Virus record (IMG/VR): IMGVR_UViG_3300032007_000014
Strand: one strand, 5' to 3'
Source: a virus
Lineage: Duplodnaviria; Caudoviricetes
DNA length: 64,000 bases
Part shown: positions 8,659-61,343 of the stretch, piece after piece
How positions within the stretch are numbered: the first letter of the stretch is position 1
How the letters are laid out: every line of letters begins with the position of its first letter
Program-made: the position numbers and the translations under genes
Notes under the pieces: model-generated
What the model was told of the DNA's origin: nothing
The model's input: the letters and a program-made list of their open reading frames with translations, nothing else
Databases searched by the model: none

Positions 8659-10780
8659 CTATAAGATAGCCGATGATGGATTCAGCTTTTCCTTGACAAG
8701 TCTATCCATTTCCTCATAGGTTGGGAGATTGAAATACTCACTTCCACACAAAGAAGCATTTTCTCTTGTATAGAGTGAGTGAAGGAAGAATTTCTCAACA
8801 TCGAACGTATCGAATTTACGTTCAGGTACAAGTCCTTCGTGAACACTTGCCATTTCTTCTGGATAGAAGAAACTCGGCATCACTTGATTGACATCAATTG
8901 GACCTACTCTCTCAGAATTGTCGATTTGAATCACGTAGAACTCTTTGGTTTCTCGTGCACAGTTTAAAGTTCTGAGAAGATTAGGATACATTGCATTTGG
9001 ATCATATTACCATCCTGTTGTCAGGATGTCTGCTCTTTCGGAATTAACCTACTCCCTGTCGGGATGATCTCTGAACGTCCATCTCTTGCAAGATGTTTCG
9101 CTGCTGATTGTTCATTGTCACAGTCCTTAGCACCACATAGTGGCTTTTATTGCAGCATAGACCGATCTATCTGTTCTTTCTGTCTTTCGACGGCATTCAC
9201 AGTTATCATTACTGATTCTGTTGTAGCCAAATAGATCATAGAACTTTCCAGCAATTAAGCAGATTCTTCGACTCATGATTACTCATGAGAAGTCCCCAAT
9301 GTGTCGAGGAGACGTCGATGTCGCACACGAACTTGTGCACATTACTGACAGCATCACTTTCCTTCAGGATCGGAACACCAGTGTTCATCGTGTTTGATGG
9401 ATCTAATACAGCACCACCTTTGTTGTTGATATAAATATCCCAAGGTGATTCCATGGATTCTCCAATAGATGCTGGTATCTTATCCTGTGGATCGAGATAC
9501 TCGTAGAATGTGTTCTTCAATTGGATGGTTTGTTTTGCAAAGTCCTCAAGATTACTGACACCAATCAACTGGATCATGTTGTAGATGTCTCTGTTCTTGA
9601 GATTCATGACATGCAGAATTGCAACGTCAACGATGTTGTACACAGTGTATGCAACTTGTTCACGAGTCTGCATTTCATAATGGCCTTTGTTGGAACCGAA
9701 TTCGAGTTTACCTGCACCAATCTCCTTCGTTCCAATATCATCCAATTTGTAAGAAGGTTCTCTTCCTTTCGCTTTGCGAAGTCTTCCATACAATGCCATC
9801 GCATCGATGTACCTTGTATAGTCAGTACAATGGAACCAATCCCACCGATCTGTGATATGGTCTCCTGGTTTACCATTGTCTTTCACATACTTGGTAACAC
9901 GATACTTCTGTGGTATGTCTTTGCTACAGAAGACATCGGTTGGTTGTTCTCCTCTGAACACAATGCGTTCCAGAAGGTAAGGAATATCGTAACCCATGTT
10001 CCAGATGACGCAGAAGTCTGGTCTATGATCGTGGATCCTATCGAAGATCCATTTGATCAAACTGATCTCCTCATCGAATATCATGTAAGTAGGGTCGATC
10101 CTATTCTTCTGATACAGCGCAGCGGCATTGGATTTCAGAGAAGCAATGAACTTCTCTTCAACCTTATGCCACATCTTATCCACTGCACCGATTGTGTTGT
10201 TTTGGAAGAACTCTTTCAAGATACCGACATATGTCTTGCCAGATCCATCGATGTAGGTGATCAGGATGATCTGGTTATTACCAGTAACATCCGTTTCAAT
10301 ATCGAGTGATCCGACGTTGTAATACGTCGGCATTCTTCCACCATTTTGTTTCTTGAATGCATGTTTGATACGAACACCGATATCAATATCCGCACCATAG
10401 ACATAAGGATTCGATAGGATTTTCCGTAGGTTCACGAATCCTTGTTGTCTCCATGACATCCTTGATGTACCGAATGGATCATCAATTGCTCTCTGGAGAG
10501 TTTGTGCAATCCTGTTATATCTCGTCTTATAACAGATACAATCCTTCTTGTTTGCGTATTCACGCTTCGCATGATAGATGCGTTTTGAAGGTTCTGTCAC
10601 ATAGACTTGTACTTCAGGATTATCGAAAATGACCATCTCTTGCTCATTGGTTTCACAGTCTTTGATGAATCCAACATAAGCATCATTATCATTATCGATT
10701 CTGACATACTCTCCATGAATCAAACATCGTCTGTCTTTTGGAATCATGTGCCATCCTCTTGGTTGTTGTTCATTATACAT
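8659..10780 (-). CDS. split family-B DNA polymerase, N-terminal/3'-5' exonuclease + motif A half; exons 10780-9307 and 8993-8659
   Basis: ExoI LDIET, ExoII WNMGYD, YKLD and ExoIII YNIVD motifs; splicing restores DIDVSSMYP (motif A); spliced product 602 aa. Confidence 0.88.
8994..9306 (-). mobile_element. ORF-less group I intron (313 nt) in the DNA polymerase gene
   Basis: Exon ends in U and intron ends in G. P AAUUGCUGGAAA, Q AAUCAGCAG, R UUCAGAGAUCA, S AAUAUGAUCC. P1 UCCU^CGA/UUGGGGA; P10 CAUUG/CAAUG. Confidence 0.92.
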
Positions 10781-10864
10781 AACTATCGTCAGCTCGAATA
10801 ATTTATAATAAGAAGATAAGTGGTGTGGAGACGAACCCCACACCACTTATCTGCGTGTCATAGA

Positions 10865-56569: not shown

Positions 56570-57585
56570 TTCATTATCCCACCGTTGTTTACGAGAAGCG
56601 TATCCATTCTCCCCAGGAGAAGTGGTTCGATGCTGGCATCGGAGAGACTGCGATATCCGATACGATACAGCATGTCTCCGAACAGGTACAGATCGCCATA
56701 CTTCATGTCACCGTACTTGAACATGAGTGTGGCGTAGTAATTGCGAAGAAGTGCGATCATCGATCCGAGACAGTACATCTCATTCATGGTGAATTCAGCA
56801 TCGACTTGTCGTTCTCTCATCAATGCAGAATCAAACACACTTCCGATGTATTTCCCATCGATGTACTTGTTGGTGATCTTGAACTTGTGGGTCCTGAACA
56901 CCTTCGGATCGATCTTGAGAGTGACGAAATTCCTTCCAAACGAAGGAGTCACCATGAGATCCCAGTACTCGAGTTTCGCAACGTACTTCCGAATCTGCGA
57001 GGACACGAAGTCATCGACACCTTCCATCTTGTATCCGAAATCATGGGACAGAAGAGTGAAGCATGCGGGGATGCTGGCTGGAAGTGACAGATGTCCGGCA
57101 TACATCAGATAATGTACCGGTGCTCTCTGTTTCTGCATGGGGTCATTTACCAGACGGACATGTCCCTTTTCATCCGTACAGAAATGTTTGCCCCACCACC
57201 TGGAGAACGATCCACACAGTTCTCGAAACGCATAGAGAATGATTTCGTAATGATGGTCTTTGACGGTTCTGGCGATGAGATCATCCGCAGGACTCTTGTC
57301 TTCGCGGTCCTTGTACATGTCATAAGCGAGTAACCTGATGTACGGCTGGATGTTTTCGCCGGACACCATGAAGACCTTGGCATCCTCGCGACAGTGCAGT
57401 TTTTCCGGATCATACCCGCATTCATCGATTCTTGCGCGTTCGACCAATGACCTGTTTTCTTCGTCGGACGAGTTCGCTATGGTGTAGCGAAGACTGGACA
57501 TGATCTCCGTGACGGACTGAAAATCCCTCACATTCATTTGATCATACGTGAGTTTCTTTCCCATTCTATCTATCTCCTGTTTCAA
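56566..57585 (-). CDS. hypothetical early protein
   Basis: 339 aa ORF (true start may be MGKK after AGGAG); upstream ATATATTAC. Confidence 0.65.
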   Translation of the reverse strand: MKQEIDRMGKKLTYDQMNVRDFQSVTEIMSSLRYTIANSSDEENRSLVERARIDECGYDPEKLHCREDAKVFMVSGENIQPYIRLLAYDMYKDREDKSPADDLIARTVKDHHYEIILYAFRELCGSFSRWWGKHFCTDEKGHVRLVNDPMQKQRAPVHYLMYAGHLSLPASIPACFTLLSHDFGYKMEGVDDFVSSQIRKYVAKLEYWDLMVTPSFGRNFVTLKIDPKVFRTHKFKITNKYIDGKYIGSVFDSALMRERQVDAEFTMNEMYCLGSMIALLRNYYATLMFKYGDMKYGDLYLFGDMLYRIGYRSLSDASIEPLLLGRMDTLLVNNGGIMK

Positions 57586-57703: not shown

Positions 57704-60700
57704 TTATGCAGAGTACTTCAGGATGGACTGAAGTCCATGTGTCACGCGATCGCGTTCTTCTGCTTTCTTGGCATTGTTGAAGCGATCGAGTGTTCCAACC
57801 AGATATCCGGTGATACGACGAAGACGTTCAAAATGAACGTTCTTGTCAAGTGCGTGACATTCCGGACACTCGTTATCGAGAAGTCCGACGAATCCACAAA
57901 CAGGACATCTGTCAGAAGACTTGTGATTGATGGAGTAGTATCCCATGTTCGCATCGTGCATCGCGCGGATCAATGCCTCGAATGCTTCGATGTTGTTGGT
58001 GGGACTTCCATCAAGCTCAATGTAACTTATATGCGATTGTCATTGCGTTTCCGCAAAGGATCGGACTATATCTTCTAAGTAGGGTGTTACGGAAAGTGTC
58101 AATCTCTTTCCTATCTAGCACGAAGCTAAGTTAGTCTCTACACACTTCATTCGTTATGAATGTTTGGCACGGTATTGGCTGCTATCCACATTGTGGACCG
58201 TAGCGTTTCTTAGTCAGTGTCTTCGTACGACTTACGTCAATGACAGCGTCTTATTCAACTGATACCGTTAGCACGTGATACTATCACGCACACCTCTTTG
58301 ACATGAGTTAACCCTATTTATCGCGAGCCATTAAGTTAACCCGCGTTACACAGCGCGTGGAACGGCGCTTCCAGCCGGATCTTGTCGTATGCCGAGATCT
58401 CGAACCCAACTGGAATATGGAAGCTGTTGGTGTAGTACTCTTTGTCAGTAACACCTTTGATGATTCCATACTTCTTCTTGTCCATGCGGACAAACTTTCC
58501 AGACAATCCTTCAGCTGGTGTGGCCAAAAGACTGTAGTTGAGTTTCATCTTCTCAGCTCTGCGATCCGTGAATTCACGCATGTGCTTGATGATCGCGTAT
58601 CCCTTCTTCCACACTTCTTCGGATTCACCATGGTGTTTACCATACAGCATGGTCAGCGCTTCTGCGAGGCCGATGAATCCGATGGAGAGGGATCCGTGTT
58701 TGATGATTTCCAAGATCTGATCATCAGGTTTGAGTTTGTCCGAGTCAATCCAGATACCCTGTTCCATGAGGAACGGGAAGTTCTTGACCAGACGTTTGCC
58801 CTGGATCAGAAGGCGATCGTAGAGTTGATCTGCAGCCATCTCAAGATACTTGTCGAGAATTGCATAGAATTTCTTCTCTGCAACTTCAGTCGAACTGGAA
58901 CTCTTGACAGCATCGATGGCGAATCTTGGAAGATTCAACGAAGTGAATGAACAATTGCCACGTCCAACGGAAATCTGTCGAGTAGGATCATACACGTTCG
59001 AAACCACTCGAGTACGACAACCCCATTGTCGTTAATAGGTAGACTATATCACGATCCCAGAGGGATCCCTGCCATTTCGAAATGATCTTGCGATCATCCC
59101 TACGCTACTCATTCCCTGATCTTTATTAGATCATTGTTTTCGCTAGTCGTTAGGCTTTTACAACACGATATGTTGATTTAGCACGGTAGGTTACATCGTC
59201 ATCACTGACGTGCTTTCCCCGTTTAAGCAGGTTTATTTAACGTATGTTGCCATACGTGACCACAGGTTGTGTTTATGGTCGCGGGTAATGTTTCCGGTGT
59301 ACCTTTGTAGTACATCTTGTTGAACGGAGCATCGATGTTCATGAAGTTCGGGAACAAACGCTTTGCAGATACCCTACAAGCGAGTTTCCAAAGATCGTAA
59401 TTCGGATCACCTGGATTGTAGTTCACTCCAGACAATTCACGGAATACGTGGATCGGGAAGATTGCGGTCTCTCCGTTTCCAAGTCCGGCATCTGTCGCAA
59501 GAAGAATGTTCTTGATCGCCATTCTTCCTTCAGGAGTTGTGTCAGTTCCGTAGTTGATGGAACTGAACGGAACCTGAGATCCAGCACGCGAATGCATGGA
59601 ACAAAGGTTGTGCACGAGTGCTTCCATCGCTTGATAAGTTTCCTTATCAATATCTCTGAAAGTACGTGCAACGACTTTGTCATACACTTTGCCGCTGATC
59701 CCGAAACCATGTTCGATCATCTTGGCATGAACACGACGTTTGAATTCATCTGTTGTAACAGATGACATCGTTGGTTCATATCCATCTGTTTCGAAGTCCT
59801 TGATGAATGCGTCCTTGTCGAATTCATTATCAAAGACATTGTCTTCTGCAAAATCAATTGCTTTCGAAAGATTGTTGTAGAAGATCTTACGGAATGACTT
59901 GGCAACACCTTCTGCCATCGCATAGTCGAAGTTATGTATCGATTGACCACCCAAGAATAGCAACTATTCCATCTCTGACTATATCATCATCTTCATTGTT
60001 CATAGTGAAGATGCCTCATTTTCCAACTGGTATCCAACTCCAGTTGTACACTACTTGATTCTCACGGATCCTTATGCGTCCGTTACTCTTTCGCTAGTCG
60101 ATTGACCTATCACAATGTGTGATGTGGCACAGGATTGTCTTAGTGTAAATCACTAATGTTTCCCCTGTTAGCAAATGCTTTAATTACCCAGTTACTGGTA
60201 AATAGAACACATGTTCTAGCATTCACACCCTGTGGATAACAGGTTAACGAGGTTGTTCGATGTAGCTCACGCTACAAAGGCACAGTTTGGATAATGCTGG
60301 TCGTTCTGACATGACTGAATTGCGATGCATGCGAGTGCTGCGTAACTCCTGATGGAACCAGGTTCACGAATATGTCCGTGACCAGTGGTGAATCCACCAT
60401 GGAACAATTTGAGCAGATCTGTCTGAACACAGGTGAGTGTCCACTGATAGAAATCGAAATCCTATTTGTTTCATCATTGCTGATGGTTCTGACTATATCA
60501 CGATCTCAGTGAGATCTGACGCACTTCCAACTGTGATCAATTCAGCTGTACTCCCGCATCCGGGATAGTCGATAGACTACAGATAAATCTATAGCACAGG
60601 ATTGACACACATGTACTTCTATCACATACATGAGGCTTTCCCTGTTAGCACACCAACTATCGATCATTTCCTATCGATCCAATTAAGTCTGATGTACACC

Positions 60701-61343
60701 GAGTGATCAACTCGTTCACGTCATTCTTCGATGTAGCTCACGCTACAAAGCCACAATTTCGTTTATGGATGTAAATGTACCCATTCAAGAATGCTTCCGC
60801 ATGCTCAGGCTTAAGCAAGTTCTTGAAGTTGTAATCCTTTGCCGCTTCCTGTCCATACATGAGCATGGAACCCATTGACGCCTGTCCGTTGACATTGGCA
60901 TTATCCCTTTTGATATCGGCATCGTCTGGATCCGAAATCTGTGCGAGAGTTTTGCTCAGGGTGGACTTGCTTTCGCGGATCTTTGTTCTGTGTGCCCGGT
61001 AATTCTCATACGAACCAGCAACTTTACCGTATCCACAGCCACGCAGTGTGTGAACAACGGCATCCTGAACCTGTTCGATTGTGAGAGTTTGACCAGGATT
61101 GTTCTTCAGGTAATCCTCCAAATGAAGGACAACCGCCCCAGTGATTCCATTCAGATTGACTTCTTTCCCATCGAGCGACTTGATCTCGTCGTTCAATGGC
61201 CACACCACGACTTCACCAGAATACTTACCCTTCAGGAACGCCTTGTTGATCGCGGACTTGATCTTGTTCGCATCAAACGGAACAACGCGACCGTCCCTTT
61301 TGATAACCTGACTGATGGTAGTGGACTGTGCTTCCAAGCTCAT
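57704..61343 (-). CDS. nrdD: anaerobic (class III) ribonucleotide reductase with ATP cone, five exons: 61343-60765, 60461-60294, 59951-59275, 59023-58339, 58033-57704 (812 aa spliced)
   Basis: VIKRDG ATP cone; spliced junctions restore YIHDFD, NDQHGGQS, TMGCRT and NAGHISY; also GRGN.SF, ATPAE, YYTNS, CPVC..CPEC and RRITGYL glycyl-radical loop. Confidence 0.95.
58034..58338 (-). mobile_element. ORF-less group I intron nrdD-I4 (305 nt)
   Basis: GGU^ ... G^CAU; P1 GCGGGU/GCUCGC; P4 ACGGUAU/AUACCGU; R GUAGAGACUA; S GAAGAUAUAGUCC. Confidence 0.92.
59024..59274 (-). mobile_element. ORF-less group I intron nrdD-I3 (251 nt)
   Basis: AU^ ... G^GGGU; P1 GACCAU/GUGGUC; P10 ACAACCU/GGGUUGU; P AAACGGGGAAAG; R AACGACUA; S GAUAUAGUC. 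Confidence 0.92.
59952..60293 (-). mobile_element. ORF-less group I intron nrdD-I2 (342 nt)
   Basis: CAU^ ... G^GGU; P1 GCAU/GUGC; P GCUAACAGGGGAAA; Q AAUCCUGUGC; R AUCGACUA; S GAUAUAGUC. Confidence 0.92.
60462..60764 (-). mobile_element. ORF-less group I intron nrdD-I1 (303 nt)
   Basis: CAU^ ... G^GAU; P1 CCAU/GUGG; P10 CGAAAUU/GAUUUCG; P GCUAACAGGGAAAG; Q AAUCCUGUGC; R AUCGACUA; S GAUAUAGUC. Confidence 0.92.

Follow-up and report, generated by a model that had tools for sequence, protein, structure and literature searches.

How did a single phage gene come to be cut by four introns that carry no gene of their own, and what are such introns doing there? The question is raised by nrdD, the gene of a class III (anaerobic) ribonucleotide reductase (RNR), in the window analyzed here, a stretch of 64,000 nucleotides (nt) from the Caudoviricetes record IMGVR_UViG_3300032007_000014 of the IMG/VR database; the genome as a whole, that of a cattle-rumen jumbo phage, measures ∼238 kb. 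Our analyses suggested that nrdD very probably holds four independent selfish group I introns, which home between sister strains and which are seen here in an endonuclease-free state. The evidence that carries this answer consists of the anatomy of the inserts, their precise presence or absence among close relatives, sister copies that bear an HNH endonuclease gene, exon flanks that co-vary with intron occupancy, substitutions that preserve the helices, and purifying selection on the exons.

Organization of the Interrupted nrdD Gene

The gene runs on the minus strand from position 61343, where an ATG is preceded by AGGAG, and consists of five open stretches split by four inserts (Table 1). The initial annotation, made from the letters of the window alone, had described four introns of 303, 342, 251, and 305 nt within conserved nrdD motifs, and its coordinates, lengths and junctions all hold. 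Joined, the five exons amount to 2439 nt, that is 812 codons plus TAA, with no internal stop. In the protein the junctions fall at YIH/DFD (amino acids (aa) 193/194), at QH/GGQ (249/250), within the codon of Met-475 (AT/G) ahead of GCR, and at NAG/HISY (703/704).

Every exon on its own was matched to the Pfam NRDD profile, and together the exons tile it in order (positions 1–46, 47–103, 104–253, 263–470, and 471–562). The joined protein could be aligned with T4 NrdD over each motif interrupted by an intron (IHVHDIDY, QYGG, PMGCR, which contains the catalytic cysteine, and GGHISY) as well as over the C-terminal CxxC...CxxC and RRxxGY region, and it also aligns with solved NrdD structures. Judged by its sequence, the predicted joined product is a class III RNR of the NrdD type, with an ATP-cone, NRDD positions 1–562, the catalytic Cys, a Zn-Cys4 site and the glycyl-radical region.

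Table 1. Exons and introns of nrdD, and the neighboring activase gene, in the 64,000-nt window (ORF, open reading frame; bp, base pairs).
Feature	Coordinates	Strand	Description
nrdD exon 1	60765-61343	-	579 nt, 193 codons; ATG at 61343, ATP-cone, start of NRDD; ends ...YIYIH, U at 60765
nrdD intron 1	60462-60764	-	303 nt, no ORF; P1 CCAU/GUGG, P10 7 bp
nrdD exon 2	60294-60461	-	168 nt, 56 codons; Pfam NRDD match
nrdD intron 2	59952-60293	-	342 nt, no ORF; nt 6-69 78% identical to intron 1
nrdD exon 3	59275-59951	-	677 nt, 225 codons plus AT of the Met-475 codon
nrdD intron 3	59024-59274	-	251 nt, no ORF; P1 6 bp, P10 7 bp, P2-P8 with P7.1/P7.2
nrdD exon 4	58339-59023	-	685 nt; G of Met-475 plus 228 codons; begins GCR (catalytic Cys motif)
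nrdD intron 4	58034-58338	-	305 nt, no ORF; P1 7 bp; best RF00028 score (33.8 bits)
nrdD exon 5	57704-58033	-	330 nt, 109 codons plus TAA; HISY..., Cys4 zinc site, glycyl-radical end of NRDD profile
nrdG-like activase, divergent	62046-62558	+	syntenic 170-aa gene of relatives matches Fer4_12 and Radical_SAM

Group I Features of the Four Inserts

On the evidence of sequence and predicted folding, all four inserts are genuine group I introns. Rfam at its gathering threshold reported no intron in the window; a relaxed Rfam search of the 4.1-kb region placed the model RF00028 end to end on all four inserts, on the correct strand and in the correct place, with scores, from the highest down, of 33.8, 31.6, 23.4, and 16 bits (E = 4.5e-6, 2.1e-5, 0.006, and 1, respectively). 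The landmarks named in the initial annotation were found again in every case: the 5′ exon ends with U, which is paired with a G of the guide sequence at intron nt 11–17, the P1 helices of introns 1–4 comprise 4, 4, 6, and 7 bp, and the last base of each intron is G (4/4). The three clear P10 helices claimed there were likewise confirmed, with 7 bp in introns 1 and 3 and, as read by eye, 3 + 4 bp with one bulge in intron 4. In addition, complementary GACTA...TAGTC strands, read as P7, are present in all four inserts, which have in common the 9-mer GATATAGTC; this word contains the 3′ strand of P7, and the corresponding strand of the 238-kb genome has six copies of it where ∼1.2 would be expected.

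For introns 2 and 3 the predicted folds were compared across natural variants with RNAalifold; those of introns 1 and 4 were judged from the alignment to the Rfam model and by eye. RNAalifold recovered P2, P3, P4, P5, P6, and P8 in both introns 2 and 3. Between the two haplotypes of intron 3, seven pairs had both bases substituted and none was broken. For intron 2 there were twelve such compensatory pairs, and the only losses were alignment gaps in the shorter variant carried by strain L062. Two hairpins stand between P7 and P3′ in intron 3 (columns 145–161 and 178–201) and in intron 2, and were read as P7.1/P7.2. Extra hairpins of this kind, placed after the 5′ strand of P7 and ahead of the 3′ strand of P3, reportedly mark the IA-type phage introns of Michel and Westhof, such as those of T4 td, nrdB and nrdD and of Twort. 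From the layout seen in introns 2 and 3, the introns look like the phage IA-like type.

Other classes of insert were rejected. Translation continued past the 5′ junction is terminated within introns 1, 2, and 4 after 8, 8, and 0 codons, respectively, and after about a dozen codons in intron 3, so that the inserts cannot be inteins, and no ORF was found within any of the four. The reading as group II introns was rejected as well.

The location of the stops was also recorded. In introns 1 and 2 (60738–60764 and 60267–60293) the host-frame TGA, 8 codons past the splice site, sits in the GUGA loop of the P2 hairpin, and intron 4 begins with TAA; the early stops of introns 1, 2, and 4 would exclude ribosomes from the ribozyme core. 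As to intron 3, its last bases (59024–59041) can pair with positions +4 to +10 of exon 4 (59005–59023) in a hairpin over the 3′ splice site. The second haplotype of this intron combines an A>G change in the intron with a T>C change in the exon, which keeps the pair; with two haplotypes only, this could be linkage.

Distribution of the Introns Among Related Strains

Close relatives came from a large protein collection and the matching contigs. The protein collection contained fragments 95–99% identical to single exons, and their differing lengths indicated that intron states differ. The comparison covered 23 contigs, mostly labeled as bovine or other metagenome assemblies (cattle gut, rumen) and several of them 236–239 kb long; exons were 92–99% identical across the close relatives. 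Near-identical contigs came from the data sets ERZ941548/ERR2200663, ERZ286537xx (WILK20-1), ERZ2863xxxx (TONG22-1), and JGI 3300011008. Among GenBank phages, megablast of the locus gave no match and tblastn only relatives below 60% identity, and IMG/VR held no close relative (best identity 62%).

A survey of intron occupancy in relatives, which the initial annotation had proposed, found every site both filled and empty among close relatives (Table 2), in at least seven occupancy patterns across the 23 contigs. Each site has an empty allele whose DNA is the exact predicted exon–exon junction (L056 at site 1, L065 at site 2, L002 at site 3, and L064 at site 4). Intron 1 is missing from eight relatives, intron 2 from two (L060 and L065), intron 3 from seven and intron 4 from eight. 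A 9-nt offset at site 2 of the most distant strain in the table, L057, was rejected as an artefact of an extrapolated short BLAST hit, tblastn showing that the gene is continuous. Between strains, introns 1, 2, and 4 are 97.7–99.7% identical and their flanking exons 92–99%, except for a divergent variant of intron 2 in L062 (80.7% identical); intron 3 occurs as two haplotypes, ∼87% alike.

Table 2. Length (nt) of the insert at each nrdD site in the window and in related contigs; 0, empty site.
Strain	Site 1	Site 2	Site 3	Site 4
Window	303	342	251	305
L059, L061	303	894	254	305
L002	303	342	0	306
L064	304	342	251	0
L062	303	324	254	0
L067	0	342	251	305
L071	0	893	254	305
L058	950	893	0	0
L087	304	894	0	0
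L060, L065	950	0	0	0
L057 (73% identical, same gene neighborhood)	0	0	0	0

Occupancy was tied to particular bases of the flanking exons. All 13 alleles occupied at site 1 have T at position −1, and all 8 that are empty there have C; at site 2, positions −1, +3, +6, and +12 follow occupancy without exception; at site 3, seven positions from −3 to −18 do so; and at site 4, the same holds for +6 and, save for one empty allele, for +3. The intron-bearing flanks read CAT/GAT, CAT/GGTGGT, ACCAT/GGG, and GGT/CATATAAG, and the intron-less ones CAC/GAT and CAC/GGAGGA. Some of the linked bases form P1 or P10 pairs, among them the U.G pair of site 1 and, for site 4, both the U and the A of CAUAUAAG, and the linked tract at site 3 extends past P1, as expected of a co-conversion tract.

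Conceptually spliced nrdD was intact in the other three- and four-intron strains examined. Counted as synonymous versus non-synonymous codon differences from the gene in the window, the alleles of L059, L061, and L067 differed by 98 versus 8, 121 versus 14, and 59 versus 5, respectively, and ∼90% of the exon differences between intron-bearing alleles are synonymous. Since this proportion is so high, purifying selection on the exons provides indirect evidence that the split gene is in use, which would in turn be an indirect sign that the introns leave the RNA. Among the strains with few introns, the intron-free part of nrdD at L060:6530-8287 was annotated as a pair of genes, of 320 and 201 aa, and tblastn identity there falls to 92%; the split call may be due to a frameshift, a stop or an assembly error.

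Homing Endonuclease Genes in Sister Introns

The longer inserts in Table 2 differ from those of the window by a gene. The 950-nt form of intron 1 has an ORF of 193 aa in the P6 loop region, and the rest of it is near-identical to the 303-nt form. The 893/894-nt forms of intron 2 have an ORF of 177 aa after the 5′ strand of P6; their 5′ and 3′ parts are near-identical to the short form, with poor alignment in between. The two ORF products are HNH endonucleases by their matches to phrog_59 (E = 2e-37 and 7e-23, respectively) and Pfam HNH_3, and BLASTP found no similarity between the two.

The window itself lacks such a gene, in agreement with the initial annotation: the introns are ORF-less, and profile searches of the window found no match to HNH_3, HNH, GIY-YIG, LAGLIDADG_3 or phrog_59. 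Searches of the genome gave no match to GIY-YIG, LAGLIDADG_3 or PF01844. Two HNH genes lie elsewhere in the genome, one in the intron region of a non-virion RNA polymerase (nvRNAP) gene and one at C1:192279-193178. The protein of the former is 28–36% identical to the enzymes of introns 1 and 2 (36% to that of intron 1). The latter (L090:3780-4679, minus strand) corresponds to the N-terminal 300 aa of a 1099-aa ORF, which match HNH families (phrog_374, E = 3e-74); this endonuclease segment has no Pfam match and is unrelated to nrdD.

Spread and Maintenance of the Introns

From these observations we infer splicing itself, the activity and specificity of the endonucleases, and the direction in which ORFs were gained or lost. 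All four introns would leave each pre-mRNA by guanosine-initiated two-step transesterification, yielding the 812-aa class III RNR. As selfish elements, they would be transferred among sister strains during co-infection, through gene conversion set off by endonucleases (homing) as well as ordinary recombination. Introns 1 and 2 would be driven by a nicking-type HNH homing endonuclease whose gene lies in the P6 loop of sister copies that are otherwise at least ∼98% identical. The copies in this genome would represent the endonuclease-free stage, in which an intron must still splice, splits the targets of endonucleases, and can be moved only in trans.

Several points weigh against this reading. 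All four RF00028 scores lie below the gathering score of 50 bits, that of intron 1 being just 16 bits, and the P10 of intron 2 is weak. The joined exon 2–exon 3 junction had no match in the metagenome contigs of the Joint Genome Institute (JGI) that were scanned, a second JGI scan returned one further contig, still with intron 4, and the protein collection contained no spliced product of 812 aa. Furthermore, an endonuclease-bearing form of intron 3 or 4 was not seen among the relatives examined. Finally, the contigs are related, so that the flank counts are non-independent events and the Fisher p-values for the association overstate independence; the co-variation of the flanks could also reflect linkage together with selection for P1/P10 pairing, rather than co-conversion.

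First, the introns may by now be immobile passengers, their patchiness produced by ordinary homologous recombination during co-infection by different strains and by occasional precise loss, with no endonuclease drive. Such an account would suit the lack of an ORF in all four copies, the fact that introns 3 and 4 were never seen with one, and the location of the two HNH genes of the genome away from nrdD, the one in the RNA polymerase intron having the modest identity given above. Nevertheless, we consider it unlikely, since HNH-bearing copies of introns 1 and 2 with near-identical ribozyme parts circulate in the same population and the introns differ less between strains than do their neighboring exons.

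Second, the introns may be kept for their usefulness, either as a splicing checkpoint (responding to GTP/Mg, or set in a ribosome-free nucleus) or as a shield against competitor endonucleases. The genome does encode a protein with a predicted chimallin fold and phiKZ-type nvRNAP subunits (see below) and contains at least eight group I introns by RF00028; moreover, an intron endonuclease is a weapon of competition in the nucleus-forming phage PhiPA3 (PMC11620839), and a split target site means immunity in principle (PMC3984707). Yet sister strains with zero to four introns in varied mixes do well and the 73%-identical relative has none, which indicates that no intron is required. Besides, PMC3653736 states, citing Sandegren and Sjoberg 2007, that T4 introns splice efficiently only if the upstream exon is translated, so that on this statement a nucleus would not be an obviously favorable setting. 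Usefulness as the reason for their upkeep is therefore quite improbable. In a related proposal for this divergent, putatively chimallin-encoding lineage, transcription at a distance from ribosomes would relax the limits on introns in protein genes, essential genes would therefore gather many of them, the endonuclease-free copies would be retained as a shield against the HNH enzymes of sister strains, and the four-intron allele would be a defended state. In principle, immunization against endonucleases would follow from the split target site, as the initial annotation had supposed; the combined proposal nonetheless appears distinctly unlikely to us.

Third, the introns may have spread through RNA, reverse splicing into the nrdD transcript being followed by reverse transcription and recombination; for the step from site 1 to site 2 at least, this might account for the 64-nt 5′ module (78% identity) and the CAU/GUG-type P1 that introns 1 and 2 share at two sites of one gene. 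Such a route is, however, very improbable: the similarity is limited to nt 6–69 and the two HNH genes are unrelated by BLASTP, which fits module exchange between neighboring introns, the pathway is without direct experimental support (PMC3984707), and the co-varying exon flanks point to conversion at the DNA level. The initial annotation had left mobilization in trans and reverse splicing side by side; the former agrees with the HNH-bearing sister copies, and nothing requires the latter. Because near-identical copies of introns 1 and 2 carry HNH genes and the flanks co-vary to −18 at site 3, the data favor homing or recombination of DNA over reverse splicing.

Lastly, that nrdD is dead or split into pieces that are never joined is scarcely conceivable, for although spliced RNA was not found in the JGI contig scans, the breaks lie inside motifs and provide neither a start codon nor a ribosome-binding site, every strain examined retains an intact joined frame, exon changes are ∼90% synonymous, and all inserts have group I features.

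The homing of selfish introns between sister strains, as we read this locus, makes it an exceptionally full natural record of the stages of homing within a single gene: near-identical strains display empty sites, endonuclease-bearing introns and endonuclease-free introns, together with changes in the exon flanks that match each state. The locus could serve as a test bed for the target choice of HNH enzymes, for the protection of occupied sites in mixed infection, and for splicing when transcription is parted from translation. If the shield proposal were true, the four-intron allele would mark a defended position in an intron arms race that is still under way, and the introns would not be neutral relics. 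The locus also carries a warning for annotation, as nrdD of such phages gets called as five fragments.

Comparison With Known Systems

Multiple introns in nrdD have precedents. The gene is the RNR gene most often split in sequenced phages (PMC3653736), and the Jug gut phages have a mean of 18.5 short group I introns per genome, with nrdD fragmented in 95/104 genomes into as many as four pieces (PMC12880540, Sci Adv 2026); the view in the initial annotation that four ORF-less introns in one gene are unusual was thus overstated. In the Jug phages terL is split too, and splicing was confirmed by metatranscriptome reads for some junctions only (PMC12880540). Like the present phage, they are jumbo phages of the gut known without cultivation, their group I introns are numerous, short and ORF-less, nrdD is in pieces, and HNH is the commonest endonuclease. 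They differ in that the Jug example has four nrdD fragments with some splicing confirmed, whereas here five exons were found in a phiKZ-like rumen phage and presence or absence was followed per site and strain, in DNA. Since multi-intron nrdD is already known from gut jumbo phages (PMC12880540), the locus is a case of ordinary selfish-intron spread and not a new kind of element; what is new here is the strain-level presence or absence at each nrdD site, the HNH-bearing forms, and the co-variation of the flanks.

Among cultured phages, T4 nrdD (sunY) likewise has a group I intron in this gene, a mobile element in a gene of nucleotide metabolism. However, it has a single intron of ∼1 kb with the GIY-YIG enzyme I-TevII, situated between aa 294 and 372 of the protein described here, and therefore none of the four sites is the T4 site. 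The SPO1-like phages (Twort nrdE and orf142; A9 nrdE) are similar in having several group I introns per gene, at conserved residues, with a mix of ORF-less and HNH-bearing forms (PMC3653736, PMC113830), Brochothrix phage A9 nrdE containing three introns plus an intein (PMC3653736). Unlike the present case, they concern the class Ib gene nrdE in cultured Firmicutes phages, and self-splicing was shown in vitro (PMC3653736, PMC113830).

A further parallel is offered by phiKZ gp55/gp56 and PhiPA3 gp210, with HNH-bearing group I introns in chimallin-encoding jumbo phages (PMC11620839, PMC12908238); the gp55 homologue of the present phage has the same layout. Those introns are single and interrupt genes for RNA polymerase, and gp210 is known to act in competition (PMC11620839, PMC12908238), the intron HNH enzyme serving competition between nucleus-forming phages (PMC11620839). 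As regards mobility, ORF-less introns can be moved by trans-acting endonucleases, and an occupied site is immune, the target being split (PMC3984707). The collaborative homing of T4-like phages resembles the present case in that ORF-less introns rely for their spread on an enzyme from another locus. In those phages this endonuclease has a free-standing gene, either in the genome itself or in that of a relative (PMC3984707), whereas the only candidates seen here are intron-borne copies in sister strains.

Other nrdD genes of uncultured viruses are interrupted too, with inserts at or near site 2, site 3, the T4 site, and aa 677/678, some with ORFs and some with GATATAGTC. Rfam on six of these interrupted loci gave nothing at E ≤ 0.01, and their inserts are described by position, ORF content and GATATAGTC. 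In IMG/VR, no exact k-mer match to introns 1/2 or to intron 3 turned up. A 19-mer of the intron 4 core was present in ten unrelated viral contigs, with at most 21–32 nt shared beyond the core. In one IMG/VR contig (L015:2476-3584) an insert of ∼1.1 kb stands at the catalytic-Cys site (site 3), and a plus-strand frame of 369 aa spans it; this insert could be an intein rather than an intron.

Genomic Context

Group I introns are not restricted to nrdD. RF00028 marked at least eight introns in the genome, that is, the four in nrdD, two in the nvRNAP gene homologous to phiKZ gp55, one at window 8989–9320, and one at genome 7823–8072. The match at window 8989–9320 (minus strand, 31.8 bits) is directly downstream of an ORF (9236–10846) with the exonuclease domain of a family B DNA polymerase, and the gene of this polymerase is probably also split by a group I intron. 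The two matches in the gp55 homologue lie back to back at C1:88094-88345 and C1:88363-88735 (minus strand; 67 and 46 bits), 17 nt apart by match coordinates. Beside the pair, an HNH_3/phrog_59 gene (C1:89045-89734, minus strand) lies in the same gp55-like gene, a layout equal to that of phiKZ gp55/gp56.

Homologues of the phiKZ-type nvRNAP subunits gp55, gp71, and gp74 are present in the genome. For chimallin, the hidden Markov models (HMMs) phrog_4795 and PF25677 and a tblastn search with phiKZ gp54 gave no match. Directly upstream of the gp55 homologue, in the position that gp54 has in phiKZ, a protein of 544 aa is encoded (C1:91372-93006, minus strand; L086:5373-7007). It has no Pfam or PHROG match (nor do its relatives in Pfam), and BLASTP against gp54 was null. 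An AlphaFold model of this protein built from 48 relatives reached a predicted local distance difference test (pLDDT) of 83 and a predicted template modeling score (pTM) of 0.81, and in a Foldseek search of the PDB it matched only chimallin (Goslar, 201phi2-1, and PhiPA3; E = 2e-17 to 2e-14, template modeling (TM) score ∼0.6, 14–16% identity). With 369 clusters at 50% identity in the metagenome library, the family is, according to the model, a large and very divergent chimallin-like family that current chimallin HMMs miss. Because the protein beside the nvRNAP gene is predicted to fold like chimallin, the phage probably builds a nucleus-like shell. The phage-nucleus setting that the initial annotation had invoked is therefore plausible on the side of the predicted fold, while the chimallin HMMs find nothing; to link the nucleus to the intron load, or to give the four splicing steps a regulatory role, is speculation.

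Downstream of nrdD, the window and the genome sequence differ by a single base at window position 57154, inside an ORF of 344 aa.

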